Positions 6,286 through 26,833 of a stretch of DNA of 64,000 nt are shown here, piece by piece. The DNA is from Ilumatobacter sp. (GTDB lineage: Bacteria > Actinomycetota > Acidimicrobiia > Acidimicrobiales > Ilumatobacteraceae), in NCBI GenBank assembly GCA_007693335.1, contig REDU01000064.1, positions 104-64,103 of the forward strand. The letters are read 5' to 3'. Below the pieces are notes generated by a model. That model was not told the DNA's origin and did not search any database. It saw only the letters and a list, made by a program, of their open reading frames with translations. Each line of letters begins with the position of its first letter. The stretch's first letter is position 1. The translations under genes and the position numbers were made by a program.

Positions 6286-6384
6286 GCAGAGGTTTACCGT
6301 GGACGGTGGCGGGGGCCGGAGGCCCCCGCGACGCCCGAGCGTCAACACCCGTGAACACCTGTCACCACCACTCAAGGGGAGATC

Positions 6385-7740: not shown

Positions 7741-9332
7741 TGACCGGGGTCGAACCCGTTGACGAGGGCCGGGGGGCCGACGCCCCCCGGCCCTCGCCGC
7801 GCCCCGTGCTCGGCAACTACGGCTCACCGTTGGGCATCCTCGTCAAGCTGGTGGCACTGGCGCTGCTCAACGCCATCGTGCTGTGGGGCCTGACGGTGAT
7901 GGCCGACGCCGGTGAGTGGGCGTTCCTCGTCTTCTCCGCCCTCGCGCTGCTGGTGATCGACTGGGTGTACCTGTCACGCCGCCGGATCCCGGGCAAGTAC
8001 CTCGTGCCGGGCACGTTGTTCCTCCTCGTGTTCGCGGTGTACCCGGTGCTCTACACGGTCTTCATCTCGACCACGAACTACGGCACCGGCAACAACCTGT
8101 CGCAGGAGCAGGCCATCCAGCAGATCGAACGCCAGTCGATCAGCGCCACCGACGAGGCCACCCGCTACTCGCTCCAGATCCTCGCTCGCGGCAACCCCGG
8201 CGGCGACCTCGCGTTCCTCCTCACCGATCCCGACGGTGAGCGGTTCCTCGGCACCGCCGACGAACTGGTCCCCCTCGCCGACGCCGACGTCGTGGCCGAC
8301 GGTCGACGCGAGACGATCGACGGTTTCGTGCCGCTCAACGCCGGTCAGGCACAGGACCGCGTGGCCGAGATCCGCAGCTTCGTCGTGCCCGGTCCCGAGG
8401 GCGAGATCGACAACGACGGGTTCGGCGCCGCGTTCACCAAGCTGCAGCGCTACGTCTACGACGCCGCCACCGGCACGATGGTCGACACCGTGAACGACGT
8501 GGTGCTCGTGGCCGACGGCGGGTACTTCGTGGACGACGACGGGCGACGACTCCTGCCCGGTTGGCGCACCAACGTCGGGCTCTCCAACTACGAAGCGCTC
8601 CTCACCGATCCGGCGTTGCGCGGCAACTTCATCCGCGTGTTCGTGTGGACAGTGGTGTTCGCCGCCGCGTCGGTGTTCTTCTCGTTCTCGCTCGGCCTGC
8701 TGCTCGCGCTGGTGTTCAACAACCCGACGATGCGCGGCCGCCAGCTCTACCGCAGCCTCATCATCATCCCCTACGCCCTGCCCAGCTTCATGACCGCCCT
8801 GGTGTGGCGCGGCATGTTCAACCAGTCGTTCGGGGTGATCAACCGTTGGCTCGACGTGAGCCTGCCGTGGCTCAGTGGCCAGTGGCTCCCGTACGTGTCG
8901 ATCCTGATCGTCAACACCTGGCTCGGCTACGTGTACATGTTCCTCGTGAGCAGCGGGGCGCTGCAGAGCATCCCCGACGAACTCACCGAGGCGGCCAAGG
9001 TCGACGGCGCCACCGGTCCGATGCGGTTCCGTCGCATCACGCTCCCGCTGCTGCTCGTGTCGATCTCGCCACTGCTGATCGCGAGCTTCGCGTTCAACTT
9101 CAACAACTTCAACCTGATCTACCTGCTCACCGAGGGTCGCCCGTCGATCCCCGGCAGCGACGCCGGGCGCACCGACATCTTGATCACGTACACCTACAAG
9201 GTGGCGTTCGAGCAGGGGGCACGGGCCGACTACGGCTTCGCCTCGGCCCTCGCCGTCGTGATCTTCCTGATCGTCGCGGCGATCTCGGCGGTCAGTTTCC
9301 GGTACACCAAGCAGCTCGAGGAGATCCGATGA
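7740..9332 (+). CDS. malF: Maltose ABC transporter permease, MalF-like with a large periplasmic P2 loop
   Basis: The start ATG at 7740 overlaps the malE stop (TGATG). It has an N-terminal TM pair, a roughly 180-aa soluble loop, then a permease core with the EAA-type motif EAAKVDGATGPMRFRRITLPLL. Confidence 0.88.
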   Translation: MTGVEPVDEGRGADAPRPSPRPVLGNYGSPLGILVKLVALALLNAIVLWGLTVMADAGEWAFLVFSALALLVIDWVYLSRRRIPGKYLVPGTLFLLVFAVYPVLYTVFISTTNYGTGNNLSQEQAIQQIERQSISATDEATRYSLQILARGNPGGDLAFLLTDPDGERFLGTADELVPLADADVVADGRRETIDGFVPLNAGQAQDRVAEIRSFVVPGPEGEIDNDGFGAAFTKLQRYVYDAATGTMVDTVNDVVLVADGGYFVDDDGRRLLPGWRTNVGLSNYEALLTDPALRGNFIRVFVWTVVFAAASVFFSFSLGLLLALVFNNPTMRGRQLYRSLIIIPYALPSFMTALVWRGMFNQSFGVINRWLDVSLPWLSGQWLPYVSILIVNTWLGYVYMFLVSSGALQSIPDELTEAAKVDGATGPMRFRRITLPLLLVSISPLLIASFAFNFNNFNLIYLLTEGRPSIPGSDAGRTDILITYTYKVAFEQGARADYGFASALAVVIFLIVAAISAVSFRYTKQLEEIR

Positions 9333-10270
9333 AGGCGCCGATGCCGGGCGAGACGACCACGGTCGACCCGTTCGCCACCGAGCACCGGCGTGCCGGGTAC
9401 GTCCCGACCCGGAACCCCGCGCGCTGGTTCCGCGACACCGGCTGGCGTCACGTGGTCGCGCTGACCGCGGTCGCGTTCGCACTGTTCCCGGTGATCTGGG
9501 TGCTGTCCGCGGCCTTCGGCACCGGCAACCTCAGCGCGCAGCGGCTCATCCCGCGCGAGATCACCCTCGACAACTTCCGCACGCTCATGACCGAGCCGGG
9601 ACACCCGCCGTTCTGGCGGTGGTTCGCGAACTCGATGATCGTGGGCGTCGTGACGGCTGCGGGCACGGTGCTGCTCTGTGCGCTCTCGGCGTTCGCGTTC
9701 AGCCGCCTCCGGTTCCGGGGCCGACGCCCGGGTCTGCTGGCACTCCTGCTCGTGCAGATGTTCCCCAACCTGCTGGCGATCACGGCGCTGTTCTTGTTCA
9801 TGACCCGCATCAAGACGATGTTCCCGGCGATCGGCCTCGGCACGATCTGGGGACTGATCTTCATCTACCTCGGCGGTGCGCTGGGCGTGAACACCTGGCT
9901 GGTCAAGGGCTTCTTCGACACCATCCCGTTCAGCCTCGACGAGTCGGCCAAGATCGACGGTGCCAGCCACGCCCAGACGTTCTTCCTGATCATCCTGCCG
10001 CTGGCGCGACCCGTGCTGGCGGTGATCGCGCTGCTGTCGTTCATCACGAGCCAGGCCGAGTTCCTGCTGGCCGACGTCATCATCGGGGCGAACGACGAGC
10101 AACGCACGCTCGCAGTGGGTCTGTCGCGCTACATCCTCGCCGGCTTCGACAACCGATGGGGGCCGTTCGCCGCCGGCGCGCTCATCGCAGCGGTGCCGGT
10201 GGTGCTGCTGTTCTTGTTCCTCCAGCGCTTCATCGTGTCGGGCCTGACGTCGGGCGCGGTCAAGGGCTGA
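9329..10270 (+). CDS. malG: Maltose ABC transporter permease, MalG-like
   Basis: MKAPMPGE.. starts within the malF stop (ATGA). The core contains ESAKIDGASHAQTFFLIILPLARP. Confidence 0.88.
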   Translation: MKAPMPGETTTVDPFATEHRRAGYVPTRNPARWFRDTGWRHVVALTAVAFALFPVIWVLSAAFGTGNLSAQRLIPREITLDNFRTLMTEPGHPPFWRWFANSMIVGVVTAAGTVLLCALSAFAFSRLRFRGRRPGLLALLLVQMFPNLLAITALFLFMTRIKTMFPAIGLGTIWGLIFIYLGGALGVNTWLVKGFFDTIPFSLDESAKIDGASHAQTFFLIILPLARPVLAVIALLSFITSQAEFLLADVIIGANDEQRTLAVGLSRYILAGFDNRWGPFAAGALIAAVPVVLLFLFLQRFIVSGLTSGAVKG

Positions 10271-10295
10271 AGTCGACCAGGTTGACCACCACCTC

Positions 10296-10309
10296 TGAAA
10301 GCGCTTACA
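10296..10309. promoter_or_regulatory. Putative LacI-family operator (TGAAAGCGCTTACA) upstream of the second lacI gene
   Basis: A 14-bp near-palindrome centred on CG, about 24 nt upstream of the ATG at 10333. It shares 12/14 positions with the site at 11438..11451 when read on the opposite strand. Confidence 0.5.
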
Positions 10310-10332
10310 TGGACGCGCAGAGGGGAAGCGAG

Positions 10333-11421
10333 ATGGCACCACACACGGGCACCGCGTCGGGAGAACGGCGGCGGGCCACGATCGAGGACGTCGCCGCGGC
10401 GGCCGGGGTGTCGGTGGCAACCGTCAGCCGAGCCATCCGTGGGCTCCCCAACGTGGCCATCTCCACCCGTGAGCGGGTGTCCAAGGTGGCCGACGAGCTG
10501 TCGTACCGGGCCGATCCGGCCGCCTCCCGGCTCGCCACCGGCCGCTCGCAGTCGGTCGGCGTGGCCGTCCCCCTGCTGAACTACTGGTACTTCTCCCAGG
10601 TGGTCTCGGGGGCCGAAGCCGTGCTCGCCGCCGAGGGCTACGACATGATCGTGATCGGGGTGGCGGGGGACGATGCCCGACGGGCGCTGCTCGACGGCGC
10701 CACCTCGATCCACCGCCGCGTCGACGGGCTGGTGTTCGTCGACGTGCCGCTGGGCGACGACGACACCGAGTTCCTCAGGTCGCGCGGCCTGGCCGTGGTG
10801 ACCGTGGGCAACCACAACGCCCACTTCCCCTCGATCGGCATCGACGATGTGGCCGTGGGCGAGATCGCCGCCGAGCACCTGCTGGGGCTCGGCCACACCC
10901 GCATCGGGATCATCGGCGGGCAGACCGGCGGACCGCTCGACTTCCCCGTGCCCGATCTGCGCCGCACCGGGTACGAGCGCGCCCTCCGACGGGCCCGCAT
11001 CGACGTCGACCCCGCCCTCGAGGTGGTCGGCAACTTCTCGGTGCTGGGCGGTCGCGACGCCGCCGACAGCCTGCTCGCCACCCACGATCGACCCACCGCC
11101 GTCTTCGCGATGTCCGACGAGATGGCCTTCGGGGCCCTGCTCTCGGCGCGCGAGCACGGACTCGACGTTCCCGGCGAGATCTCGATCGTGGGGGTGGACG
11201 ACCACGACGTCTCGGTCGTGGTCGGGCTCACCACCGTCCGCCAGCCGGTGGCCGATCACGGGGCCCGTGCCGCCCGGCTGGTGATCGAACAGCTCACCGG
11301 ACGCGAGGTCGGTCCCACCCGCGTCGAGCGCCCGGTCGAGCTCGTGGTGCGCTCGACCACCGCACCGCTCACCACCGCTCGGAACGAGGTGCACCGGCCA
11401 GAAACCCGCTCGAAACCTTGA
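10333..11421 (+). CDS. LacI-family transcriptional regulator
   Basis: ATIEDVAAAAGVSVATVSRAIRG is the HTH, followed by a PBP-type effector domain. An RBS-like aggggaag precedes the ATG at 10333. Confidence 0.88.
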   Translation: MAPHTGTASGERRRATIEDVAAAAGVSVATVSRAIRGLPNVAISTRERVSKVADELSYRADPAASRLATGRSQSVGVAVPLLNYWYFSQVVSGAEAVLAAEGYDMIVIGVAGDDARRALLDGATSIHRRVDGLVFVDVPLGDDDTEFLRSRGLAVVTVGNHNAHFPSIGIDDVAVGEIAAEHLLGLGHTRIGIIGGQTGGPLDFPVPDLRRTGYERALRRARIDVDPALEVVGNFSVLGGRDAADSLLATHDRPTAVFAMSDEMAFGALLSAREHGLDVPGEISIVGVDDHDVSVVVGLTTVRQPVADHGARAARLVIEQLTGREVGPTRVERPVELVVRSTTAPLTTARNEVHRPETRSKP

Positions 11422-11437
11422 CGACACCCCGTACGTA

Positions 11438-11451
11438 TGTAAGCGTTTACA
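11438..11451. promoter_or_regulatory. Putative LacI-family operator (TGTAAGCGTTTACA) upstream of the sugar ABC operon
   Basis: A 14-bp near-palindrome in the 89-nt gap between the lacI stop and the SBP start. It belongs to the same motif family as 10296..10309. Confidence 0.5.
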
Positions 11452-11510
11452 CCCGGGACGGGCATCTCCGTCCCGATCGTGAACACACCCGAATGAGGGG
11501 GAGGACCCTG

Positions 11511-12935
11511 ATGACGAAGCGCTGGCACAAGCTGGCCGCTCTGCCCATCGCCTTCGCACTCGTGGCCGCAGCATGCGGCGGCGACGACGACGGCGTGGCA
11601 GACGCACCCGACGAGCCCGATACCACCGAGGCTCCCGACACCGACGAACCCGACGCTCCCGACACCGAAGACTTCGGTGGCGTCGAGATCGTGATCACCG
11701 GCTCCGAGCGCGACGACCCCTCGGTCGGCGCGATCAACGCCGTGTTGCAGGAGTTCGGCTCCGAGCGCGGCATCGACGTCACCTTCATCGGTGACGCCGA
11801 CTGGGAAGCCAACATCAACACCCAGGTCGAAGGCGGCAACCCGCCCGACATCTCGATCTTCCCGCAGCCCGGCAAGCTGGCCGAGTTCGCCCGCGACGGT
11901 TTCATCCTGCCGCTGAGTGACGACGTGGTCAGCTCGATCCAGGACCACTGGGCCGAGAGCTACCAGCTCGACGGCATCGTCGACGACGTCCACTTCGGTG
12001 TGCCCGTCAAGACCGACCTCAAGTCGCTCGTGTGGTACAAGCCGTCGATCTTCGAGGGTGCCGGCTACGCCGTGCCCGAGACCTACGACGAGCTCGAGGC
12101 CCTCACCCAGCAGATGGTCGACGACGGCGGGCCCGCCCCGTGGTGCGTCGGCGTCGAGTCCGGTCAGGCCACTGGCTGGACCTACACCGACTGGGTCGAG
12201 GAGATGGTGCTCCGCCTCCACGGTGGCGACGTGTACGACGGCTGGGTCTCCAACGAGATCCCCTTCGACGACCCCCGCATCATCGAGGCCATGCAGGCCC
12301 CGATCACGCTGTGGACCGGTGAGAGCGACGAGGAAGCCGCACGTCAGGCACTCGCCGACCGTGACCTGCCCCGCGTGTTCGCCGCCAGCGGCACCATCGC
12401 CCAGACGAACTTCGCCGACTCGGCCGACCCGCTGATGGACGGCCAGTGCTACATGCACCGCCAGGCGTCGTTCTTCTCCGGGTTCTTCCCCGAGGGCACG
12501 CCGTTCGCCGACGGGTCCGACGACGCCATCAACGTCTTCTACTTCCCCGACATCAACGACGACGCACCGGCGCTCACCGCCGGCACGCTCGCCGCGGCGT
12601 TCAACGACGAGCCGGCCACGATGGCCGTGCTCGAGTTCATGGCGACCGGTGAGTACGCCGAGAAGCGCCAGGCCGAGCAGACCCGTCTGCTCGACGGTGG
12701 TCTGTCCGGCTTCCTGTCGGCTGCTTCCGGCCAGGACCCGTCGGTGTACCAGCCGCTCGAGCAGGAGTTCCTCGACATCCTGCTCAACGCCGAGCTGGCC
12801 CGCTTCGACGCCTCCGACCTCATGCCGGCAGCCGTCGGCGCCGGGTCGTTCTGGAGCGAGGGCACCAACATCATCAACGGTGACATCACCGTGAGCGAGG
12901 GCGCAGCCCGCATCCAGGAGTCGTGGCCCAACTGA
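11511..12935 (+). CDS. Carbohydrate ABC transporter substrate-binding lipoprotein (substrate unknown)
   Basis: MTKRWHKLAALPIAFALVAAAC is a lipoprotein signal. It is followed by a D/P/T-rich linker and a family-1 SBP core (ITGSERDD.., ISIFPQPGKLAEF, WCVGVESGQATGW). A strong RBS, gggggagga, precedes the start. Confidence 0.85.
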   Translation: MTKRWHKLAALPIAFALVAAACGGDDDGVADAPDEPDTTEAPDTDEPDAPDTEDFGGVEIVITGSERDDPSVGAINAVLQEFGSERGIDVTFIGDADWEANINTQVEGGNPPDISIFPQPGKLAEFARDGFILPLSDDVVSSIQDHWAESYQLDGIVDDVHFGVPVKTDLKSLVWYKPSIFEGAGYAVPETYDELEALTQQMVDDGGPAPWCVGVESGQATGWTYTDWVEEMVLRLHGGDVYDGWVSNEIPFDDPRIIEAMQAPITLWTGESDEEAARQALADRDLPRVFAASGTIAQTNFADSADPLMDGQCYMHRQASFFSGFFPEGTPFADGSDDAINVFYFPDINDDAPALTAGTLAAAFNDEPATMAVLEFMATGEYAEKRQAEQTRLLDGGLSGFLSAASGQDPSVYQPLEQEFLDILLNAELARFDASDLMPAAVGAGSFWSEGTNIINGDITVSEGAARIQESWPN

Positions 12936-12975
12936 GTCACAGCACCACAGCAGTGAGAACTGCACTGTGAATTCC

Positions 12976-13013
12976 GGTCGGGGCACTGGCACTACGGTGT
13001 CGGTGCCCCGACC
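12976..13013 (+). other. Intercistronic stem-loop between the SBP and permease genes
   Basis: GGTCGGGGCAC-(16 nt)-GTGCCCCGACC gives a perfect 11-bp GC-rich stem, followed only by a weak aTTT. It is a likely mRNA-stabilising or attenuating hairpin of the kind often seen after SBP genes. Confidence 0.55.
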
Positions 13014-13069
13014 CATTTCGGGGAGATCCAGGCCAGCTGGAGGACAGAGCTGGAGGGGAAAGGGACGAC

Positions 13070-14992
13070 ATGGGGAAGATCATCTCGACGCTGATCACGG
13101 TGGTGGTCGCGGTCGGCTTCAGTGCGGCCATCTGGGTGGGCGCCAATCTGGTGTTCAACCAGGCCCGGTACCACTGGGCCCGCTTCAACGGACTCGTGTT
13201 CGGCGTGGGGGGATTCCTGCTCGGGGTACTGCTCTCCGGCAACCGTCTCACCATCGGATCGGAGGGTGAGACGCTCGGGGGCTTCCTCAACTGGGTCTGG
13301 CTCCCGCTGGTGCTCGCCGCCGTGTTCGCCGTGTTGGGCGTGGCGCTCACCCGCACCGACGACGACCGGCAGCGACTCATCATCGCCATCGCCACCGGCG
13401 CCGTGGTGGGCGTCGGTCTCGGGTTGCTCATCCAGGACCAGTACCTCCCGTCGTTCTCGCCCATCGGACTCATCGGCTGGACGGTGGCCGGTGTGGCGAT
13501 CGGCGGCGGCCTCGCCCTCGCCCGCAAGAAGCCACCCCTCAACGGCGTGCTGGTGTGGGGTGCACTGTTCTTCATCATCGGAGCCTGGGGCACGGCCGAC
13601 CTGGGGGCGGGTTCGACCGTCGAAGCGGTGATCGGCACGCTCGTGCCGGCCCTGGCCCTCGGGGTCCGGCTCGGACTCACCGACAACCCCGAGCTCCACA
13701 CCCGCACGATCATCGATCAGAAGTCACGTGCCGTGATCTTCCTCGGACCGGCGCTGCTGTTCATCTTCATCACGCTGCTGGTACCCACCGTCCGCACCAT
13801 CTACCTGTCGCTGCTCGACAACCGCTCCGAGGAGTTCGTCGCGTTCGAGAACTACGTCACGACCTTCCAGGACCGCGGGAGCTGGGACGCGTCGGGCTTC
13901 TCCAACTTCTTCACGAGCCAGCTGTTCTGGATCGGCGTGGTCCTCCTCGGCATCGGGGTGGTGCTCGGCATCGCGCAGAAGCAGCGCACCGGTAAAGCCG
14001 TCGAGCTGGGCGGAGCGAGCCTCGGCCCGCTGGTCGTTGCGGGCGTGCTGCTCGCCTTCGCCCTGTTCACGACACTGCGCGGCACCATCGTGAACAACCT
14101 CTGGTGGGTGGTGGCCGTCACCCTGTTCTCCACGGTGCTCGGTCTGGCCGTGGCCGTGCTGGCCGACAAGGCCAAGGGCGAGAAGATCGCCAAGTCGATC
14201 ATCTTCATGCCCATGGCGATCTCGATGGTGGGCGCCTCGATCATCTGGCGGTTCATGTACGCCAGCCGCGACATCAGCGGCGAGCAGACCGGTGTGCTCA
14301 ACGCCCTGTGGGTGGGCCTCGGTCGGCTCAGCACCGGCAGTGGCATCCCCACCCTGATCGTGACGATCGTGCTCGGCCTGATCCTGCTCGGCCTCGCCTA
14401 CATGGTCGCCATGGCCCTCACGAAGCAGAACGTCGGTCGGGCCGTCGTGCCCGGCGTGGCGTTCTTGCTGATCGGCTGGTTCTTCGTCAGGTTCGCCGGC
14501 ATCGTCGGCGGCGGTGTGGGCGGCTTCCGCGTCACCGCCGACGGCCAGACCGTCGCCCGCACGATCGATTTCATCACCGACTCGCCGTACAACAACTTCT
14601 GGCTGATGGTCATCCTGATCTGGATCCAGACCGGCTTCGCGATGGTGATCCTCTCGGCGGCCATCAAGGCCGTGCCCGAGGAGTACCTCGAGGCCGCCCG
14701 GGTCGACGGTGCGACGCAATCACAGATCTTCTGGCGCATCGTGCTCCCCCAGATCGGCACCACCATCGGCGTGGTGGTCACCACCCTCATCGTGGTGGTC
14801 ATGAAGGTGTACGACATCGTGAAGGTCGTCACCAACGGCCAGTTCGGCACCCAGGTGCTGGCCAACGACATGTTCAACCAGGCCTTCGCCTTCGGCAACA
14901 CCGGACGCGGCGCCGCACTCGCGGTGCTGATCTTCGTGTCGGTGCTGCCCGTCATGTACCTCAACATCCGCCGTATGCAGAAGGAAGCGTGA
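13070..14992 (+). CDS. Carbohydrate ABC transporter permease, unusually long (640 aa) with extra TM segments
   Basis: The C-terminal part is a MalF/UgpA-type core with the EAA loop EAARVDGATQSQIFWRIVLPQI. About 215 aa of additional hydrophobic helices precede it, and further hydrophobic inserts lie inside the core. Confidence 0.85.
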   Translation: MGKIISTLITVVVAVGFSAAIWVGANLVFNQARYHWARFNGLVFGVGGFLLGVLLSGNRLTIGSEGETLGGFLNWVWLPLVLAAVFAVLGVALTRTDDDRQRLIIAIATGAVVGVGLGLLIQDQYLPSFSPIGLIGWTVAGVAIGGGLALARKKPPLNGVLVWGALFFIIGAWGTADLGAGSTVEAVIGTLVPALALGVRLGLTDNPELHTRTIIDQKSRAVIFLGPALLFIFITLLVPTVRTIYLSLLDNRSEEFVAFENYVTTFQDRGSWDASGFSNFFTSQLFWIGVVLLGIGVVLGIAQKQRTGKAVELGGASLGPLVVAGVLLAFALFTTLRGTIVNNLWWVVAVTLFSTVLGLAVAVLADKAKGEKIAKSIIFMPMAISMVGASIIWRFMYASRDISGEQTGVLNALWVGLGRLSTGSGIPTLIVTIVLGLILLGLAYMVAMALTKQNVGRAVVPGVAFLLIGWFFVRFAGIVGGGVGGFRVTADGQTVARTIDFITDSPYNNFWLMVILIWIQTGFAMVILSAAIKAVPEEYLEAARVDGATQSQIFWRIVLPQIGTTIGVVVTTLIVVVMKVYDIVKVVTNGQFGTQVLANDMFNQAFAFGNTGRGAALAVLIFVSVLPVMYLNIRRMQKEA

Positions 14993-14993
14993 G

Positions 14994-15998
14994 ATGACCT
15001 CCACCGGCACCACCCCGGTCCTCACCGATCCCGGCGACGTCCACCCCGACGCGGCCATGGGCGACGACGGCGGCAAGAAAGGGGGGGTCGGCGACCGCAT
15101 CTACGGCCTGCTGCGGGCCATCCCGCCGGGCGTGCTCTGGCTGCTCGTGCTCGTGTGGAGCATCCCCACGCTCGGGCTGTTCGTCAACTCGTTCCGCGAC
15201 CGGTCGTCGCAGCGCAGCTCGGGCTGGTGGACCTCGCTCGCCAGCCCGGAGCAGTTCACACTCGACAACTACGAGGTCGTGCTGGGCGCCAGCGCGTCGG
15301 CCGGGCTGGTCGACTCGCTGTTGAACTCGTTCGCGATCGCGATCCCCGCCACGATCATCCCGATCGCCATGGCGGCATTCGCCGCCTACGCGTTCGCCTG
15401 GATCGATTTCAAGGGACGCAAGTGGTTGTTCATCGGCACGGTCGCGCTGCTGGCGGTGCCGCTGCAGGTGGCGCTCATCCCCCTGCTCCAGCTGTTCTCG
15501 GGCGGCGCCCACTGGACCATCCCCGGTCTCGACCGCACGATCACGTTCATCGCCGACTTCGATCTGGCCGGCAACACCACCGCCGTGTGGCTCACCCACG
15601 CCGGGTTCGCGATGCCGTTCGCCATCTTCTTGCTGCACAACTACATCTCGGGGCTCCCGAAAGACCTGTTCGAGGCCGCACGCATCGACGGCGCCGACCA
15701 CTTCACGGTGTTCTGGCGGCTCGTGCTCCCGCTCTCGATCCCGGTGCTGGCCGCCTTCGCGATCTTCCAGTTCCTGTGGACCTGGAACGACTTCCTGATC
15801 GCCAACACGATGGTCGGCAGCAACCCGAACGCCATCCCCACCACCATCCGCATCGCCAACCTGGCCGGCGACTTCGGCCGCAACGAACACCTCCTGCCGG
15901 CGGCTGCCTTCGTGCAGTCGTTCGTACCGATCGTGGTGTTCTTCGCCCTGCAGCGCTACTTCGTGCGCGGCATCCTGGCCGGATCCGTGAAGGGCTGA
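14994..15998 (+). CDS. Carbohydrate ABC transporter permease (MalG/UgpE-type)
   Basis: The ATG lies 1 nt after the upstream stop. EAA loop EAARIDGADHFTVFWRLVLPLS; 6-TM pattern. Confidence 0.88.
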   Translation: MTSTGTTPVLTDPGDVHPDAAMGDDGGKKGGVGDRIYGLLRAIPPGVLWLLVLVWSIPTLGLFVNSFRDRSSQRSSGWWTSLASPEQFTLDNYEVVLGASASAGLVDSLLNSFAIAIPATIIPIAMAAFAAYAFAWIDFKGRKWLFIGTVALLAVPLQVALIPLLQLFSGGAHWTIPGLDRTITFIADFDLAGNTTAVWLTHAGFAMPFAIFLLHNYISGLPKDLFEAARIDGADHFTVFWRLVLPLSIPVLAAFAIFQFLWTWNDFLIANTMVGSNPNAIPTTIRIANLAGDFGRNEHLLPAAAFVQSFVPIVVFFALQRYFVRGILAGSVKG

Positions 15999-16039
15999 CC
16001 CGCCCCACCTGCGACGGGCAGCAACTACGATCGGACGAC

Positions 16040-16942
16040 GTGACCTCTCTCGTCCGCACCGATCCGCGTCCGTTGGGCGACCTCCCACCCGTCGGACCCA
16101 TCGCCTACGGACAGTGGCGCTACACCACCGACGACGTGGGCGCGGCGCAACGCCTCATCGAGACGGCACTCGACGCCGGGATGAACCTCATCGACACCGC
16201 CGACGTGTACGGCCTCGACTGGGGCGGCACCGGGTTCGGTGAGGTCGAGGCGCTGCTCGGCCGGGTGCTGGCCGCGGCCCCGGGGCTGCGCGACCGGATG
16301 GTGCTCGCCACCAAGGGGGGCATCGTGCCACCGGTGCCCTACGACTCGTCACCCACCGCACTGCGGGCTGCCTGCGAGGCATCGCTCGGCCGGCTGGGTG
16401 TCGACGTGATCGATCTCTACCAGATCCACCGACACGACATGCTCACGCATCCGGCCGATGTGGCAGCCACGCTGGCCGCGCTGCGCGACGAGGGCAAGAT
16501 CCGCGAGGTCGGCGTGTCGAACCACACGCCGGCCCAGATCGCAGCCCTCGCGGCGCACCTCCCGTTCCCGATCGTGTCGAACCAGCCCGAGTACTCGGCC
16601 GTCCAGCTCGCACCGCTGCGCGACGGCACGTTCGATGCGTGCATGCGCGACGGTGTCACACCGCTGGCATGGAGCCCGCTGGCCGGCGGCGCGCTCGCCA
16701 CCGGCGACGGTCTCGCACCCGACCTGCTCGCGGTGCTCGACGAGTTGGCCGAACGCGAAGGCGTCGACCGGTCGATCATCGCGCTGGCGTTCGTGCTGGC
16801 CCACCCCGCCGCCCCGGTGGCGATCATCGGCACCCAGAATCCCGACCGCATCACCGGCTCGAACGCGGCGCTGGCCGTGCAACTCGACCGCCACGACGTC
16901 TATCGCATCATCCAAGCCTCCGAAGGAGTTCCCCTGCCATGA
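16040..16942 (+). CDS. Aldo/keto reductase
   Basis: RPLGDLPPVGPIAYGQWRY, LIDTADVYG, DLYQIHRHD, VGVSNH and WSPLAGG are AKR signatures. The first canonical start in frame is the GTG at 16040; upstream ORF sequence overlaps the permease out of frame. Confidence 0.82.
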   Translation: MTSLVRTDPRPLGDLPPVGPIAYGQWRYTTDDVGAAQRLIETALDAGMNLIDTADVYGLDWGGTGFGEVEALLGRVLAAAPGLRDRMVLATKGGIVPPVPYDSSPTALRAACEASLGRLGVDVIDLYQIHRHDMLTHPADVAATLAALRDEGKIREVGVSNHTPAQIAALAAHLPFPIVSNQPEYSAVQLAPLRDGTFDACMRDGVTPLAWSPLAGGALATGDGLAPDLLAVLDELAEREGVDRSIIALAFVLAHPAAPVAIIGTQNPDRITGSNAALAVQLDRHDVYRIIQASEGVPLP

Positions 16943-18003
16943 GCCCGATCGAAGTCAGCTGGTTCTCCGCACTCTGCGACGACGACTACGAGTTCCTCGG
17001 GGTGCCCGACACGGCGCTGCAGAGCTCGTGGGAGCACTGCAGCGACATCGTGCGGGCCGCCGACCGTCACGGCCTCGACAACGTGCTGCTGCCGTCGGGC
17101 TACACCCTCGGCATCGACTCCACGGCGTTCGCCGCGGCCATCGCCACCCACACCCGTGACATCAACCTGCTCCTGGCCGTGCGCATGGGCGAGATGTGGC
17201 TCCCACAGTTGGCCCGTCAGCTCGCCAGCATCGACCAGTTCGCCAACGGCCGGCTGTGCATCAACATCATCTCCTCCGACATCCCCGGTGAGGCGCTCGA
17301 CTCGGCGCCCCGCTACCAGCGCACCCGCGAGTGGATGCAGGTGCTCAGATCGCTCCTGAACGGCGAATCCATCGACTTCCACGGCGAGTTCGTCGACCTC
17401 GAGCTCGACCCGCCCCGCATCTCGACGGTGTCGGGCACCTGCCCGCCGTTCTACTTCGGCGGGTTCTCCGATGCCGCCAAGGACGTTGCCGCCGCCGAGG
17501 CCGACGTGTTCCTCACCTGGCCCGACACCGTCGCATCGGTGGGCGAGACCGTGACCGAGATGCGGGGTCGGGCCCAGGCCTACGGCCGGGAACTCACCTA
17601 CGGGCTCCGGGCCCATGTGATCGTGCGCGAGACCGAGGCTGCGGCCCGTGCCGCCGCCGACCGTCTCGTGTCGAAGCTCGACGACGACACCGGTGCCGCC
17701 ATCCGCGGCAAGTCGCTCGACGCGGCGTCGGTGGGCGTGCAGCGTCAGGCGGCACTGCGCGAATCTGCCACCGACGACGGGTACGCCGAGGCCAACCTCT
17801 GGACCGGTGTGGGCCGGGCCCGCAGCGGCGCCGGCGCCGCCATCGTGGGCGACCCCGATCAGGTGGCCGCCAAGTTGGAGGCGTACCGCTCCGTCGGTGT
17901 GAGCGCGTTCATCCTGTCGGGGTACACGCACCGTGCCGAACTCGACCTGTTCGCCCGCTACGTGCTGCCCAAGCTCGACCACGCACCGCTCAAGGTGCGC
18001 TGA
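16939..18003 (+). CDS. SsuD-like (alkanesulfonate-monooxygenase-type) luciferase-like flavin monooxygenase
   Basis: The ATG overlaps the AKR stop (ATGA). From memory of E. coli SsuD, similarity runs end to end: WFSAL.., GRLCINIISS, PPFYFGGFSDAA, HVIVRETEAAARAAADRLVSKLDD, NLWTGVGRARSGAGAAIVGDPDQVAAKLEAY..FILSGY. Confidence 0.85.
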   Translation: MSPIEVSWFSALCDDDYEFLGVPDTALQSSWEHCSDIVRAADRHGLDNVLLPSGYTLGIDSTAFAAAIATHTRDINLLLAVRMGEMWLPQLARQLASIDQFANGRLCINIISSDIPGEALDSAPRYQRTREWMQVLRSLLNGESIDFHGEFVDLELDPPRISTVSGTCPPFYFGGFSDAAKDVAAAEADVFLTWPDTVASVGETVTEMRGRAQAYGRELTYGLRAHVIVRETEAAARAAADRLVSKLDDDTGAAIRGKSLDAASVGVQRQAALRESATDDGYAEANLWTGVGRARSGAGAAIVGDPDQVAAKLEAYRSVGVSAFILSGYTHRAELDLFARYVLPKLDHAPLKVR

Positions 18004-18012
18004 CGACCCAGC

Positions 18013-19185
18013 TCAGTGCCAGATGGCGAGGCGGGTGTCAGGGTCGAAGAAGTGGAACCGCTCGGTCGACACGGCGATCTCGATGGTGTCGCCCATGCGA
18101 ACCCGCGACCGGGGGCTGAAGCGACCGACGGCGGTCGAGGTGCCGTTGTGTGAAGCCTCCTCGATGGCGTCGGGATCTCCGGAGTTGATCTTCGCGGCGT
18201 CCACACCGAAGTGGACCATCAACTCGGAACCGAGCGCCTCGATCAGCGAGACCTTGGCCGTGATCCGGCGATCGACAGGGATGTCGGCCATCATCTCCGC
18301 GTCTTCGAAGTCCTCGGGGCGGATGCCGAGGATGACCGGCTTGTCCGCGTAGGCGCGCAGGGCCGGCCGCTCTCCGAGCACCGACGGATCGAGCGTGACC
18401 GCCTGACTGCCGATGCCCACCGTGGCGTTGTCGCCCTCGATGCGCAACGACGCCTCGTACAGGTTCATCGACGGCGAACCGATGAACGCCGCCACGAAGA
18501 CGTTGTCGGGGCGGTCGTAGAGGTTCTGCGGGCTGTCGACCTGCTGCAGATAGCCGTCTTTCAGCACGGCCACCCGATCGCCCATGGTCATGGCCTCGAT
18601 CTGGTCGTGCGTGACGTACACGGTGGTGACGGCCAACTCACGCTGCAGCGCCGCGATCTCGGCGCGCATCTGGACGCGCAGCTTGGCATCGAGGTTCGAC
18701 AGCGGCTCGTCCATGAGGAATGCCGCCGGCTGACGCACGATGGCACGACCCATGGCCACGCGCTGACGCTGACCACCCGAGAGCTGCCCGGGCTTGCGGT
18801 CGAGGTTGGCCTCGAGTTCGAGGATGGCCGCGGCCTTGCGCACCCGGCTGTCGATCTCATCTTTCGGCACCCGTGCGAGCTTGAGGGCGAAGCCGATGTT
18901 GTCGTACACCGACATGTGCGGGTACAGCGCGTAGTTCTGGAACACCATCGCGATGTCGCGGTCTTTTGGCTCGACGTCGTTCACGATGCGATCGCCGATC
19001 CGCATCGTGCCACCCGAGATCGTCTCGAGACCTGCGACCATGCGCAGCGCGGTCGACTTGCCGCAGCCCGACGGACCCACGAGCACCAAGAACTCCTTGT
19101 CCGCGATCTGCAGATCGAGATCGTAGATCGCCTGGAATCCGTTCTCGTAGATCTTGTTGATCTTCTCGAGCTCGACGGTTGCCAT
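18013..19185 (-). CDS. msiK: Sugar ABC transporter ATP-binding protein (MsiK/MalK/UgpC type)
   Basis: Walker [10 protein letters not shown], signature [14 protein letters not shown], Walker [12 protein letters not shown], plus a C-terminal TOBE/MalK regulatory domain. Confidence 0.93.
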
Positions 19186-19227
19186 CAGTCCCTCCCCGGG
19201 AATCCCCCCCTGTGCGTTCCGGTGAGG

Positions 19228-19671
19228 CTAGTCGACCGGGCGACGATCTTCGACCACGACGAAGCGACGACCCGTGATGATCTCCGGCTCGATACGGACC
19301 ACGCGGTTCTTCGGACTCGCGTGCCACGGGAACAGCGGGAGATCAGCGGCATCGAAGCGACCGTGCACCTGCTCGAGCTCGACCGCGCGCCCCCTGATCA
19401 CGACGCTCCACGCCTCGCCGGCCTCGGGCTCGTAGCCGTCGGCCTCGAACGCGACCGACGTCCCGAGCACCGCAGCCGCCAGCTTGGTGCCCTCCGCCGT
19501 GCGGAAGATCACCGAACCATGGTCGACCACGTAGTTGACGGGGAAGATGTCGGGTTGGTTCATGATCGCGACCGCGATCCGACCCACTCCACCCCCCTGC
19601 TGTTCGTTGGCCCGCATCAACTCCCAGCACTCGGAGTCGGTGAGCTCTCGCATCCCCTCTGGTGTCGCCAT
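19228..19671 (-). CDS. Pyridoxamine-5'-phosphate-oxidase-family (FMN/F420 split-barrel) protein
   Basis: LTDSECWELMRAN..GRIAV..PDIFPVNYVVDHGSVIFRTAEGTKL..WSVVIRGRA is the typical PNPOx-like 2 architecture. Confidence 0.78.
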   Translation of the reverse strand: MATPEGMRELTDSECWELMRANEQQGGGVGRIAVAIMNQPDIFPVNYVVDHGSVIFRTAEGTKLAAAVLGTSVAFEADGYEPEAGEAWSVVIRGRAVELEQVHGRFDAADLPLFPWHASPKNRVVRIEPEIITGRRFVVVEDRRPVD

Positions 19672-19736
19672 GAGCCCATGGTCGCGCGGCCGGCACCCTG
19701 CCGCCAGGGTCGAACGTCACGGTAACGTCGAGCCCC

Positions 19737-20330
19737 GTGAACCAGATGAAGACCCGCCTCCAGTCGCTCGGGCTGGTCGACCGCGCCCTGGCCGCCATCG
19801 GTGACGACGAGCTCGAGGCACTCGTGGCCGGTCTCGGCGACGACCATCGTGAGGCCGTCGAACGGCTCGCGGAGGGCACGTCGGCCGACGAGCTGCGGGC
19901 CGCCGCCTCCTCGGGACGCCTCAACGGCACGATGGAGAGCCTGGTGATGGTCCTCACCGACGCCTGCCTCGCCGACTGCATCGAGCAGCTCGACGATCAC
20001 GCCGACAACCCGTCCACCGATCAGCTCACCGAGGTGCTGCCCGGTCTCGTCGAGCGCCACGGAGTACCCCTGACCCGGCTCATGCTGGCCTCCACCGTGG
20101 CCGGTGAGGCCCCGGCCGCCGCGATCATCCGCGATCTCCTCAAGAACGACGACCTCGTGAAGCTCCCACCGGTCGAGCCGAAGCCGGTCACGCCCATCGT
20201 GCAGGCCCCGTCGGTGGACGACGCCGAGCGCGAGGCGATCAAGGCCAAGCGACGCGAGATGAAGGAACGCAAGCAGGCCGAGGCCCGCGCCCGACGCGAA
20301 CAGTCACAGCGCGACCGCGGCAGGGCCTAG
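19737..20330 (+). CDS. Hypothetical protein (acidic helical N-terminal part, Lys/Arg-rich C-terminal tail)
   Basis: A 197-aa ORF with coding-like composition and no recognisable motif. GTG at 19737 or ATG at 19746 could be the start. The stop overlaps the ogt stop (convergent). Confidence 0.5.
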   Translation: MNQMKTRLQSLGLVDRALAAIGDDELEALVAGLGDDHREAVERLAEGTSADELRAAASSGRLNGTMESLVMVLTDACLADCIEQLDDHADNPSTDQLTEVLPGLVERHGVPLTRLMLASTVAGEAPAAAIIRDLLKNDDLVKLPPVEPKPVTPIVQAPSVDDAEREAIKAKRREMKERKQAEARARREQSQRDRGRA

Positions 20331-20863
20331 CCACCGCACGCTCCGCCGCCCGACGTGCTGGCGAGCACGTGCCGCTCGTGGTCGAGGAGCCAGGCCTTGG
20401 CGTCGAGGCCACCGGCGAAGCCCGTCAATCGGCCGCCGGCACCGTTCACGCGATGGCACGGCACCACGATCGACAGCGGGTTCCGGCCGTTCGCCGCGCC
20501 CACGGCCCGGGCCTTGCGCGCATCACCGAGGGCCACGGCCTGCTCGGCGTAGGTCATCGTGGCACCGAACGGGATCGAGCGGAGCACGGCCCACACCGAC
20601 CGCTGGAACGGTGTGCCCGCCGGGGCCAGCGGGAGGTCGAACACCGTGCGCTCACCGGCCAGGTACTCGTCGAGTTGCGCCACGGTGCGCGCGAGCACCT
20701 CGTCGGGGTCGTGGGGCGCTCCCGTCGCCGGTTCGGTCGACGACGACTCGGGCAACGGGACCCTGACCGCTCGATCGTCGCGCCACAGCACGGCGCGGAG
20801 TCCGCTCTCGTCGGCCACCAACGTGAGGCGGCCGACGGGTGTGTCATGGGTGGTGCGATGCAT
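20327..20863 (-). CDS. ogt: Methylated-DNA--protein-cysteine methyltransferase
   Basis: Active-site IVVPCHRV, GTPFQRSVW and MTYAEQA motifs. The start is taken at the internal ATG at 20863, just after the ada/alkA stop. Confidence 0.9.
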   Translation of the reverse strand: MHRTTHDTPVGRLTLVADESGLRAVLWRDDRAVRVPLPESSSTEPATGAPHDPDEVLARTVAQLDEYLAGERTVFDLPLAPAGTPFQRSVWAVLRSIPFGATMTYAEQAVALGDARKARAVGAANGRNPLSIVVPCHRVNGAGGRLTGFAGGLDAKAWLLDHERHVLASTSGGGACGG

Positions 20864-20868
20864 GGCGT

Positions 20869-22419: not shown

Positions 22420-23658
22420 TCAGTCACCGGCCACCGGGATCAGCCGATCGGGCGATTCGAGCGCCACGGGACGGGGACGCTCGACCACCCTGGTCCACAG
22501 CACGACCAGACCGACCAGACAGAACACGGCCCCACCGGCGAAGCCCGCCCGCTTGCCGAACAGCTCACCGACGAGCCCCAGCAGTACGCCACCGGTCACG
22601 GTCCCGACCTCGAAGAACATCGTGAACGAGCTGATCGCGGCCGCCCGCTGATGCTCGTCGACCGCGTCGACCACGATCGCCATCAGCGACGGGTACAGGA
22701 ACGCCATGCCGACGCCGAACACGACCGCTGCCGTCCACAGCCCCCACGCCTCGGGCACCGTCGCCACGACGATCAGTGCGGTCGCGAGGAGCCCGAGCGC
22801 GATCGTGCCGGACGGCCCGGGGCCGATCTTCTCGGGGATCCGCGCGCCCACGATGCGGAGCACGAGGCAGACCATGCTGTACGTGAGGAACAACCCGCCG
22901 GCGCCGCTCAGGCCGAGATCACGAGAGTGCTCGGGGATGAACGCCGCGAACACGGCGAAGCCGGCGATACCCGATCCCAGCACGATGCCCGGCCACAGTG
23001 CCGCCGGGTGGAGGAACCGCCGCTTCACGCGTACGCTCGGCGCTGCACGTTGGTCGAGATGCCGAGGCACGGCCAGCACGAGCAACGCGGCGAGCACCGC
23101 GATCAGCCCGGCGACCGAGAACGTGAGCACGTAACGATCGTCGGCCAGCAACCACTCGCCGAGGACCGGTCCGATCCCGATACCGCCGAAGACAGCCACG
23201 GAGAAGTAGCTCGCTGCCTCTGCGCGTCGGTTCGGCGGTGCGAGATCGGCGATGGTCGTGGCGGCGCCGACGAACATCGCGGCTTCACCCACACCGGTGA
23301 GACCACGCAGGATCAGCAGTTGCCAGAGCGAGTCGGCGAAGCCGGCGGAACCGCCCGCGATCGCAGCGACGAGCGCCCCCGTCATCATGAGCCGCCGACG
23401 GCCGTACCGGTCGCCCGCCCAGCCGATGGCCGGACGGGCGAGGATGGCCGCGGTGGCGAACGCAGCGAGCGTGAGCCCCACACCGAACTCCCCTGCTCCC
23501 AGCGAATCCTCGACGAAGCGCGGCACCACCGCCACGAGCAGACCGATGTAGACGAAGAAGACCAGGGCCGCCGAGGTGACCGCGAGGAACGGCATCGTCA
23601 CGAGACGCTCGCGCCGGCCGCTCGCGGAGCTGGGGGTGTGGAGATCGTCGAGGCTCAT
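22420..23658 (-). CDS. MFS transporter
   Basis: A 12-TM pattern with the MFS loop motif GWAGDRYGRRRLM between TM2 and TM3. Confidence 0.85.
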   Translation of the reverse strand: MSLDDLHTPSSASGRRERLVTMPFLAVTSAALVFFVYIGLLVAVVPRFVEDSLGAGEFGVGLTLAAFATAAILARPAIGWAGDRYGRRRLMMTGALVAAIAGGSAGFADSLWQLLILRGLTGVGEAAMFVGAATTIADLAPPNRRAEAASYFSVAVFGGIGIGPVLGEWLLADDRYVLTFSVAGLIAVLAALLVLAVPRHLDQRAAPSVRVKRRFLHPAALWPGIVLGSGIAGFAVFAAFIPEHSRDLGLSGAGGLFLTYSMVCLVLRIVGARIPEKIGPGPSGTIALGLLATALIVVATVPEAWGLWTAAVVFGVGMAFLYPSLMAIVVDAVDEHQRAAAISSFTMFFEVGTVTGGVLLGLVGELFGKRAGFAGGAVFCLVGLVVLWTRVVERPRPVALESPDRLIPVAGD

Positions 23659-26826: not shown

Positions 26827-26833
26827 CGACACG

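Follow-up and report, generated by a model that had tools for sequence, protein, structure and literature searches.

A pared-down actinobacterial cassette predicted to degrade sulfoquinovose by a sulfo-SMO-type route

The locus lies in a 64-kb stretch of Ilumatobacter DNA (the window) and comprises, in order, a lacI gene, a gene for a lipoprotein SBP, two permease genes, an aldo-keto reductase (AKR) gene and a luciferase-like monooxygenase (LLM) gene, all on the + strand, with msiK convergent downstream. A 41-nt gap separates the stop of permease 2 (15998) from the GTG start of the AKR gene (16040), the AKR and LLM genes are joined by an ATGA overlap (CCATGAGC), and the LLM and msiK stop codons are 9 nt apart. 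The original prediction, made from the sequence alone, had read the SBP and permeases after lacI, the gap, the overlap and the convergent ATPase correctly. The cassette genes are intact, with coding-type GC3 values of 0.83–0.96.

The first gene encodes a LacI-family repressor (10333..11421; Pfam LacI HTH and Peripla_BP_3) that scores under the cut-off of all NCBIfam equivalogs and is a putative functional analogue of the sulfo-SMO pathway regulator. In a survey of 84 related loci (71 from Acidimicrobiia; 80 with sufficient flank), LacI orthologues of 43–66% identity head the cassette in 31 of the 71 Acidimicrobiia loci. As had been proposed, lacI is flanked by two copies of one operator motif: O1 (TGAAAGCGCTTACA; 10296..10309), a LacI-type 14-bp palindrome that precedes the lacI start by 24 nt, and O2 (TGTAAGCGTTTACA; 11438..11451), which lies some 60 nt ahead of the SBP start. 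Each matches the 14-bp palindrome TGWAAGCGYTTACA exactly, and nowhere else in the 64 kb does a site come within one mismatch of it; the chance expectation is 0.11 matches at up to two mismatches. The O1 motif also precedes lacI in L002, L009, L011, L012, L014, L027, L028 and L034, and an identical or near-identical O2-like site precedes the SBP gene by about 60 nt in L001, L002, L009, L011, L012, L014, L024, L027, L028, L034 and L058. The operator pair is highly non-random, and its promoter positions are kept in relatives. One of these loci, L002, belongs to I. nonamiensis, a cassette-bearing Ilumatobacter.

For the SBP of this CUT1-type ABC importer (11511..12935; SBP_bac_1), the most probable start is the ATG at 11511, which has the RBS GGGGGAGGA ahead of it, and the protein carries the signal peptide MTKRWHKLAALPIAFALVAAAC with the lipobox VAAAC. 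Its predicted ligand is sulfoquinovose (SQ), a sulfosugar of plants and algae, or an SQ glycoside. Two comparisons had been suggested for this protein: a likeness to SmoF was not found (no match to 7NBZ/7OFY, even at E ≤ 10), and neither did the SBP cluster tightly with any characterised neutral-sugar binder, its top PDB match being AcbH at 39 bits. SBP orthologues of 39–63% identity occur in cassettes that also bear a homologue of the sulfoquinovosidase SqgA. Permease 1 (13070..14992; 640 aa) has BPD_transp_1 at residues 422–627 behind a long multi-TM N-terminal extension, giving about 17 hydrophobic segments in all, and is 41–66% identical over almost its full length in relatives; permease 2 (14994..15998; BPD_transp_1) is 54–80% identical. 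The MsiK/UgpC-type ATPase (18013..19185, − strand; ABC_tran and OB_MalK) scores 472 bits with the UgpC subfamily model, over a cut-off of 432, and is the probable energiser of the importer. The window also holds an ATPase-less MalEFG-like system upstream of the cassette, which MsiK probably energises too. Among the Acidimicrobiia loci, 41 of 71 have msiK convergent directly downstream of the LLM gene. The operator motif precedes msiK in L011, L013, L014, L015, L017 and L072; a motif scan of the 64 kb found none ahead of the window msiK.

The LLM (16939..18003; Bac_luciferase, 175 bits) is a SmoC/SquD-like, FMNH2-dependent enzyme whose top PDB matches are the SmoC structures RoSmoC (7OH2, 354 bits) and AtSmoC (7OLF, 350 bits; PMC8795539), followed by MsuD (235 bits) and SsuD (223 bits). 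The likeness to SsuD noticed earlier does extend over the whole length, at 37% identity, but SmoC is the closer match at 50%. In a neighbour-joining tree with four characterised references only, the window LLM and its relatives joined SmoC with 100% bootstrap support, leaving MsuD and SsuD outside, and all F420 LLM models scored far under their cut-offs; the enzyme thus falls in neither a non-sulfonate nor an F420-dependent clade. All seven named SmoC active-site residues are kept: Y126, S177, W194, R224, H226, Y329 and H331 correspond to RoSmoC Y136, S189, W206, R236, H238, Y341 and H343. In 37 columns that are invariant within the SmoC clade but differ in SsuD and MsuD, the window LLM has the clade's residue, and a 6-residue deletion is shared with that clade too. 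The LLM is accordingly predicted, from sequence, to be a sulfoquinovose monooxygenase.

In the E. coli SsuEADCB system, SsuD (PDB 1M41) uses FMNH2 and O2 to cleave C–S bonds and release sulfite. SsuD and the window LLM belong to the same TIM-barrel LLM fold family and have FMN-phosphate and sulfonate-site residues in common, as does MsuD, and the best NCBIfam models for the LLM are those of SsuD (273 and 272 bits); homologues are publicly annotated as 'alkanesulfonate monooxygenase'. These observations could be taken to mean that the LLM is a general SsuD-type enzyme for sulfur scavenging, with a neutral-sugar importer and a detoxifying AKR as unrelated neighbours. We consider this highly improbable: the LLM reaches about half of the SsuD equivalog cut-off (272 versus 518 bits) and is set apart from SsuD by its place in the SmoC clade, the deletion and the 37 clade-specific substitutions. 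Moreover, E. coli has SsuE and SsuABC, whereas the window cassette has neither an SsuE nor an SsuABC-type transporter, but a sugar-type transporter, LacI-type sugar regulation with conserved operators and an AKR partner whose pairing is invariant, with SQases linked in relatives.

That partner (16040..16942; Aldo_ket_red, 192 bits) is SmoB/SquF-like and predicted to be an NAD(P)H-dependent 6-oxo-glucose (6-dehydroglucose) reductase. Its top PDB match is indeed SmoB (7BBY/7BBZ; 147 bits, 38% identity), a modest preference over YdhF (130 bits). The catalytic tetrad is D52/Y57/K92/H130, and R131 and W211 are the equivalents of SmoB R152 and W232. The SmoB loop with Lys120, which contacts glucose, is absent from the window AKR in the alignment, and from all aligned non-Rhizobiales AKR orthologues as well.

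The AKR gene lies upstream of the LLM gene, adjacent or with one gene between, in all 80 loci with sufficient flank, and in 49 of the 71 loci from Acidimicrobiia the same ABC transporter adjoins the pair, so the conservation that had been proposed as a check is borne out. A co-occurring GH31 was found in the proteobacterial loci, but in Acidimicrobiia the SQase is instead a homologue of the GH188 NAD+-dependent sulfoquinovosidase SqgA, present within 10 kb in 43 of 71 loci, where it is placed either between the AKR and LLM genes or divergently to the AKR gene. These homologues score 331–357 bits against 8QC3/8QC2 and conserve the sulfonate-binding Arg and Lys (SqgA: PMC10755693). SqgA is absent from every one of the 21 most closely related loci, whose LLMs are 79.5% or more identical to that of the window. 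Proteobacterial LLM orthologues of 66–68% identity, from Caulobacter, Sphingopyxis and Sphingorhabdus, lie in LacI/AKR/LLM/TonB-receptor/GH31/MFS clusters; among the genes examined in the Caulobacter and Sphingopyxis clusters, no flavin reductase was seen.

We infer SQ as the substrate. The same chemistry on a different one (a sulfonated carbohydrate or polyol other than SQ, or an alpha-glycoside that contains SQ but is not SQGro) would fit a subclade without any SQase, an SBP unrelated to SmoF, the only characterised SQGro binder, and an AKR without the SmoB K120 loop. In 26 of the 71 loci from Acidimicrobiia the cassette is also linked to GH13 alpha-glucosidase-like genes, but this linkage is no argument for a new substrate because a GH13 of a Roseobacter sulfo-SMO cluster is an ordinary alpha-glucosidase with no SQase activity (bioRxiv 10.1101/2023.03.31.535182). 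We regard a different substrate as unlikely, given that SqgA homologues with intact sulfonate-binding residues occur in sister loci whose SBP, permeases, AKR and LLM are orthologous, and that GH31 adjoins the proteobacterial orthologues.

As the original prediction had cautioned for GH31 and flavin reductases, the 64-kb window holds no sulfoquinovosidase (GH31 or GH188) and no recognisable flavin reductase; it also holds no sulfite or sulfate exporter. Its reading of the gene at the left edge as hydrolase-like, and as the only such gene, is not supported: that ORF (41-1573) has no Pfam or NCBIfam match, and the window contains an Abhydrolase_3 hydrolase (34668-35900) and a GDPD hydrolase (42312-43022). 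The PNPOx-like gene (Pyridox_ox_2, PF12900; 19228..19671, − strand), which precedes msiK by 42 nt and is co-oriented with it, has a homologue in L003 only among the 84 loci and is probably outside the cassette; no evidence supported its product as a flavin reductase. The missing SQase, reductase and exporter, together with some close relatives that keep LacI-AKR-LLM-MsiK but lack nearby transporter genes (L005, L006, L010, L013 and L021), might suggest a decaying remnant whose pathway no longer works. Such decay is very doubtful: the intact genes with coding-type GC3, the 79–95% LLM identity across the clade and the conservation of both operators together indicate purifying selection, and flavin reductases are often unlinked (SmoA is not part of a survey definition of the pathway, PMC13372026, and none was seen among the genes examined in the Caulobacter and Sphingopyxis clusters). 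The window's Ilumatobacteraceae subclade carries a minimal form of the cassette.

The characterised smoA-I cluster of Agrobacterium tumefaciens C58 (Sharma et al. 2022, PMC8795539) resembles the window cassette in its SBP-based ABC import, its local transcriptional regulator, a SmoC of the same clade with the same active-site residues (50% identity) and a SmoB that likewise adjoins the monooxygenase gene and shares the catalytic tetrad, R152 and W232 (38% identity). It differs in having the flavin reductase SmoA and the GH31 sulfoquinovosidase SmoI, which the window cassette lacks, and its SmoF has no detectable homology to the window SBP. The window AKR lacks the K120 loop and has a DWGGTGFG insertion after the catalytic Tyr, permease 1 is longer by about seven TM segments, the ATPase gene is of the MsiK type and lies in convergent orientation, and the cassette belongs to an actinobacterium of the Acidimicrobiia. 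Outside the actinobacteria, the nearest orthologues (LLM 66–68%, AKR 46–54% identity) are in L073, L079, L081 and L083, of the Sphingomonadales/Caulobacter type, which was compared through these four loci and likened by description to the Novosphingobium aromaticivorans SquD/SquF system, characterised in work cited in PMC12890257. There the AKR shares the architecture of the window AKR, likewise with no K120 loop, its gene is directly upstream of the LLM gene and a LacI-family regulator is present; import, however, is by a TonB-dependent receptor and MFS rather than CUT1 ABC. These clusters also carry GH31 (or SqgA) and in many cases a YeiH-family exporter, none of which the window has. Roseobacter-clade clusters, which carry the GH188 SqgA (PMC10755693, PMC12780224), share with the window a sulfo-SMO core without GH31, and their combination of smoB, smoC and SqgA recurs, with an SqgA homologue, in most Acidimicrobiia relatives of the cassette (43 of 71); GH13 alpha-glucosidase genes may accompany them, for example Marinovum MsGH13. 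Unlike the window and its 21 closest relatives, which lack SqgA in cis, they have SqgA, and they retain SmoA, the Marinovum protein being 47% identical to that of Agrobacterium (both from bioRxiv 10.1101/2023.03.31.535182).

Taken together, we think it likely that the cassette is of the sulfo-SMO type, importing SQ, removing its sulfur as sulfite and converting the remainder to glucose. Without inducer, the LacI repressor would sit on O1 and O2 and keep lacI and the SBP-permease-permease-AKR-LLM operon off. With inducer present, the lipoprotein SBP would bind extracellular SQ or a small SQ glycoside, which the two permeases would bring in with energy from the neighbouring MsiK-type ATPase. The SmoC-type LLM would then hydroxylate C6 with FMNH2 and O2, giving a product that would collapse to 6-oxo-glucose and sulfite, and the translationally coupled AKR would reduce 6-oxo-glucose to glucose with NAD(P)H. 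FMNH2 would presumably come from a flavin reductase encoded elsewhere, and sulfite would be disposed of through genes elsewhere.

The suggestion of a Gram-positive sulfo-ASMO/SMO variant is supported by the LLM clade, the AKR match, the synteny and the SQases in relatives. Reviews still give the pathway as alpha/beta-proteobacterial, as the original prediction had it, but a 2026 genome survey, which defines a sulfo-SMO cluster as SmoB and SmoC within 10 ORFs without requiring SmoA, already includes Actinomycetota clusters (PMC13372026), which weakens the taxonomic novelty; the SmoB- and SmoC-like genes of the window cassette likewise lie within 10 ORFs. In a pathway known from Proteobacteria, the window cassette is predicted to be a pared-down actinobacterial copy, and its SQase-less subclade may take up free SQ or use an SQase encoded elsewhere.

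The cassette, a LacI regulator, solute-binding protein (SBP), two permeases, an aldo-keto reductase (AKR) and a luciferase-like monooxygenase (LLM), is probably a module for sulfoquinovose (SQ) import and desulfonation. Every gene named in the original prediction of sulfosugar desulfonation is present. The LacI gene (10333-11421) encodes a LacI helix-turn-helix N terminus and a periplasmic-binding-protein-like effector domain, and is followed by an SBP_bac_1 gene whose most likely start is the ATG at 11511, with a strong ribosome-binding site ahead of it and a lipoprotein signal peptide behind (predicted mature protein from Cys22), and by two BPD_transp_1 permease genes. The AKR gene (16040-16942) begins 41 nt after the permease gene and the LLM gene (16939-18003) overlaps its stop as ATGA, both as first described; msiK, for an MsiK/UgpC-type ATPase, indeed lies convergent just downstream (18013-19185). 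The 8-23 kb portion of the window has a GC content of 65-73%, and database homologues 80-95% identical to the LLM belong to Ilumatobacter nonamiensis, I. coccineus (82% identical) and Ilumatobacteraceae MAGs; the host is an Ilumatobacteraceae-like member of the Acidimicrobiia.

We compared the LLM with all PDB sequences, and its best matches were RoSmoC (7OH2, 354 bits) and AtSmoC (7OLF, 350 bits), with MsuD (235 bits), SsuD (223 bits) and SfnG (105 bits) scoring lower. The source for the SmoC and SmoB PDB codes is Sharma et al. 2022 (PMC8795539). The enzyme, originally likened to SsuD and proposed for placement against the SsuD, MsuD and F420-dependent clades, forms one clade with SmoC at 100% bootstrap in a neighbour-joining tree, with MsuD and SsuD outside. 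It is 50% identical to SmoC, 66-68% identical to orthologues from Caulobacter and Sphingomonadales, and 37-38% identical to SsuD and MsuD. The LLM has every one of the seven residues named for the RoSmoC FMN-phosphate and sulfonate sites (Y126, S177, W194, R224, H226, Y329 and H331), but they are also common to SsuD and MsuD and are therefore necessary rather than diagnostic. More informative are 37 columns, invariant in 18 SmoC-clade sequences, at which both SsuD and MsuD differ, and a 6-residue deletion in the ISSD(I/F)PGE loop common to the LLM and the SmoC clade. The LLM scores 272.2 bits against the SsuD equivalog TIGR03565 (cut-off 518.2) and 273.1 bits against NF001939 (cut-off 510), and we consider it very improbable that it is an SsuD-like enzyme with a sulfur-scavenging role. 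An F420-dependent or non-sulfonate enzyme was rejected, since F420 models fall far below their thresholds (the best, TIGR03619, gives 62.9 bits against a cut-off of 166.9) and the best PDB matches are SmoC. On sequence grounds, the LLM is thus a predicted SmoC/SquD-type FMNH2-dependent SQ monooxygenase.

The partner enzyme, originally compared to SmoB, has SmoB as its best PDB match (147 bits, 38% identity); YdhF follows closely with 130 bits. Its catalytic tetrad is kept (D52/Y57/K92/H130), and R131 and W211 are the equivalents of SmoB R152 and W232. The loop bearing SmoB K120, which contacts glucose, is missing from the AKR and from every non-Rhizobiales orthologue aligned, including the GH31-linked ones. 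The gene beside the monooxygenase thus encodes a predicted SmoB/SquF-type 6-oxo-glucose reductase with the K120 loop absent. A recent survey defines sulfo-SMO clusters operationally by SmoB and SmoC homologues in a 10-ORF window, with SmoA optional (PMC13372026); here the two genes are adjacent and overlapping, well within 10 ORFs.

A scan of species-representative genomes returned 565 stretches encoding an LLM relative. The best 80 of these were considered and are mostly from Acidimicrobiia (Ilumatobacteraceae, MedAcidi-G1 and G2B, and the sponge symbionts Poriferisodalis and Poriferisocius), then from Caulobacter and Sphingomonadales. Using tblastn seeds, we analysed 82 non-redundant loci (71 Acidimicrobiia and 11 proteobacterial; individual loci are numbered L001 onward), whose neighbourhoods were taken from close homologues of the window LLM, the exact LLM sequence having matched no contig. 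The AKR gene lies upstream of the LLM gene, adjacent or one gene off, in 80/80 loci whose upstream sequence extends for 1 kb or more, so that the pairing of the original prediction is conserved in relatives. In Acidimicrobiia the pair is accompanied by the same LacI/SBP/permease/permease genes and a convergent msiK. Proteobacterial loci show the classical sulfo-SMO/ASMO layout, in which the pair is joined by LacI, a TonB-dependent receptor, GH31, an MFS transporter and a YeiH-family exporter. Two MAGs labelled Pseudomonadota and Myxococcota (L056 and L061) also carry AKR-LLM pairs, with LLMs 68-72% identical to that of the window; these group beside the Acidimicrobiia clade and apart from the Sphingomonadales/Caulobacter set, a placement that could reflect horizontal transfer or mis-binning.

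Around 14 loci have a gene of about 1.1 kb between AKR and LLM, and others have a divergent gene upstream of AKR; both encode a Gfo/Idh/MocA protein whose best PDB matches (331-357 bits) are ArSqgA and FlSqgA (8QC3, 8QC2), NAD+-dependent GH188 sulfoquinovosidases (PMC10755693). Equivalents of the ArSqgA catalytic residues and the sulfonate-binding Arg166 and Lys172 are kept in an alignment of the Acidimicrobiia homologue. The AKR-LLM gap was also considered as the site of a flavin-reductase gene and rejected, the inserted gene being SqgA; other small neighbouring ORFs encode a sigma factor or a serine/threonine dehydratase, or are matchless. It had been suggested that relatives be surveyed for a co-occurring GH31 or flavin reductase, and this succeeded in part: GH31 occurs in 5/11 proteobacterial loci and in 0/71 Acidimicrobiia loci, 43 of which have an SqgA homologue within 10 kb. 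That the cassette is linked, in different lineages, to two unrelated sulfoquinovosidase (SQase) families is the best contextual evidence for SQ as the substrate, and we regard it as unlikely that the cassette handles a related but different sulfonated substrate.

Two further genes recur in the neighbourhoods. In 26/71 Acidimicrobiia loci, sponge symbionts among them, the cassette is in synteny with a gene of about 520 aa for a GH13 oligo-1,6-glucosidase/TreC-like alpha-glucosidase (for example, L001 1535-3118 and L033 835-2394), which often co-occurs with SqgA. That it encodes a non-classical SQase is unlikely given the precedent of Marinovum MsGH13, the sole characterised GH13 of a sulfo-SMO cluster, which is a plain alpha-glucosidase with no SQase activity (bioRxiv 10.1101/2023.03.31.535182). 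A YeiH-family (PF03601/TIGR00698) 'putative sulfate export transporter' gene is linked to smoBC in Ilumatobacteraceae and in Caulobacter/Sphingopyxis (L001 11135-12139, L009, L034, L073 7693-8712, L077, L079 and L081), following the LLM gene in the close relatives L001, L009 and L034, and is a candidate sulfite/sulfate exporter for the pathway. Where L001 has this gene, I. nonamiensis (L002 11121-11978) has a 285-aa ORF between LLM and msiK that has no Pfam or NCBIfam match.

The two operator copies first noticed around lacI are real. O1, TGAAAGCGCTTACA (10296-10309), and O2, TGTAAGCGTTTACA (11438-11451), are exact palindromes of the TGnAAnCGnTTnCA type at the lacI and SBP promoters, and are the sole sites in the 64 kb with 0-1 mismatches to the palindrome TGWAAGCGYTTACA; 0.11 matches at up to two mismatches are expected by chance. 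These positions are kept in relatives, upstream of lacI and about 60 nt upstream of the SBP gene, and an operator also precedes AKR where that gene heads its own unit divergent from sqgA. Six loci have an operator just upstream of msiK (L011 12325, L013 12292, L014 12363, L015 4618, L017 4056 and L072 12234), suggesting that msiK belongs to the same LacI regulon there. In the window no operator site lies upstream of msiK, and a PNPOx-like gene sits there, 42 nt upstream on the same strand. Together, the domain and predicted operators identify a putative LacI-family repressor, and the operator footprint defines a small predicted regulon spanning the whole cassette. A sigma-70 promoter scan of 10200-19800 gave no match and is uninformative for a high-GC actinobacterium.

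The CUT1 ABC importer genes are co-operonic with AKR and LLM. Even at E<=10 the SBP did not match SmoF (7NBZ/7OFY), so it is not a SmoF orthologue and comes from a different lineage; its closest solved relatives, at 33-39 bits, are AcbH, RafE-type and glucose binders. The SBPs of SqgA-containing cassettes are orthologous to it (39-63% identity), and transporters are diverse among published sulfo-SMO clusters (PMC8795539). Permease 1 (13070-14992) is unusually long (640 aa) and has about 17 hydrophobic segments; only residues 422-627 belong to the canonical BPD_transp_1 domain, leaving about seven extra N-terminal transmembrane (TM) segments, and this long form is kept in relatives at 633-752 aa (for example, L002 and L003). 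A second sugar system lies directly upstream (5178-10270), comprising a divergent LacI gene on the minus strand (5178-6266), an SBP (6385-7740), a MalF-like permease (7644-9332) that carries a TM_PBP2_N domain, and a MalG-like permease (9329-10270), whose stop is only 62 nt from the lacI of the cassette. This MalEFG-like system (6385-10270) includes no ATPase gene, so the neighbouring MsiK-type ATPase may power both importers. In L003 the same upstream operon ends with a maltodextrin-glucosidase-like GH13 gene (624 aa) that is absent from the window.

The subclade of the window carries a minimal form of the cassette. SqgA is found in 0/21 loci whose LLM is at least 79.5% identical to that of the window. 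Seed searches of the 64-kb window revealed no GH31, GH188, GH13, YeiH, TonB receptor or MFS partner, tblastn with GH31 and SqgA seeds gave no match, and no sulfite-handling gene was seen across the window. No flavin-reductase family was detected among the scanned gene products, which cover most predicted genes of the window. The original caveat that the operon has neither a GH31 SQase nor a flavin reductase therefore holds and extends to the 64 kb: the cluster has no dedicated NAD(P)H:flavin reductase (SmoA/SsuE), and a gateway SQase (GH31 YihQ/SmoI or GH188 SqgA) occurs in relatives and not in the window. Among the best 120 database homologues of an Acidimicrobiia SqgA, none is named Ilumatobacter, most entries carrying no name. 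We rejected the PNPOx-like gene as the missing flavin reductase: it belongs to Pyridox_ox_2 and accompanies the cassette only in L003 of 84 loci, so it is probably unrelated. For all these absences, a non-functional remnant is a highly unlikely explanation of the cassette.

A left-edge ORF (41-1573) was rejected as a glycosidase for want of a family match; it and an ORF at 19737-20330 are well formed with coding-type GC3 (0.88-0.90), and neither has a Pfam or NCBIfam match. The latter lies between the PNPOx-like gene and MGMT/Ada genes, and L003 has an ORF at the same position. Pfam scans of 30 more genes of the window gave unrelated housekeeping functions only. The rest of the window (20327-64000) is occupied by genes unrelated to the cassette, such as MGMT and Ada/AlkA DNA-repair genes (20327-22389), an MFS transporter (22420-23658), a transglutaminase, circularly permuted ATP-grasp and Alpha-E cluster (23726-29276), Amt-GlnK (31061-32909), an FrhB/FdhB-like F420 dehydrogenase beta-subunit protein (33248-34636), ETF alpha and beta (39512-41294), a PdtaS-type histidine kinase (44477-46006) and a ccm cytochrome c maturation cluster (56719-61926).

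In the preferred SQ import and desulfonation scheme, LacI would repress at O1 and O2 until a sulfosugar-derived inducer appears. The lipoprotein SBP, two permeases and MsiK would bring SQ into the cell or, should an SQase be encoded elsewhere, a small SQ glycoside. The SmoC-type enzyme would then convert SQ, O2 and FMNH2 from an unlinked flavin reductase into 6-oxo-glucose and sulfite, and the translationally coupled AKR would reduce 6-oxo-glucose to glucose. The sequence data establish the gene identities, synteny, operators and clade membership; substrate, cofactor supply and the fate of the sulfite are the parts of this scheme that we infer.

To our knowledge, sulfo-SMO is one of only two known routes with complete mineralisation in a single organism. 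A January 2026 review lists sulfo-ASMO as alpha/beta-proteobacterial (PMC12890257, Table 1) and a July 2026 review names only proteobacterial sulfo-SMO taxa (PMC13436972); a 2026 ISME J survey reports sulfo-SMO clusters as frequent in Actinomycetota and Spirochaetota (PMC13372026), and, among the 20 papers listed by a literature text search, was the only one to link sulfoquinovose to Ilumatobacter, Acidimicrobiia or Actinomycetota. A North Sea bloom preprint counted multiple 'ssuD' copies in Ilumatobacter MAGs, with SQ not recognised. Because Actinomycetota clusters are already in that survey (PMC13372026), we regard the cassette as a new, sequence-predicted member of a known pathway and not as a new kind of system. 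It differs from described sulfo-SMO clusters in its non-SmoF SBP, the lack of an SQase or reductase in cis and its LacI operators, features that are within the accessory-gene variability already described for such clusters.

A broader reading, which we offer only tentatively, is that the form seen in Ilumatobacteraceae is a separate, pared-down module that scavenges free SQ, with a new SQ-specific SBP lineage and a permease of about 17 TM segments, and that, with the SqgA-bearing marine MedAcidi and sponge-symbiont versions, it makes the Acidimicrobiia a large and overlooked guild of organisms that mineralise SQ completely. Ocean abundance estimates used a 60% identity cut-off against Roseobacter SmoC, and sequences such as the window LLM, about 50% identical to rhizobial SmoC, may fall under it (PMC12780224); such a guild, if real, may have been partly missed by ocean surveys. 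If the cassette is functional, its SBP would add a second type of sulfosugar binding protein, unrelated to the first, cultured Ilumatobacter strains would offer a tractable Gram-positive model, and common Acidimicrobiia of freshwater, soil, the sea and sponges would consume SQ and release sulfite.
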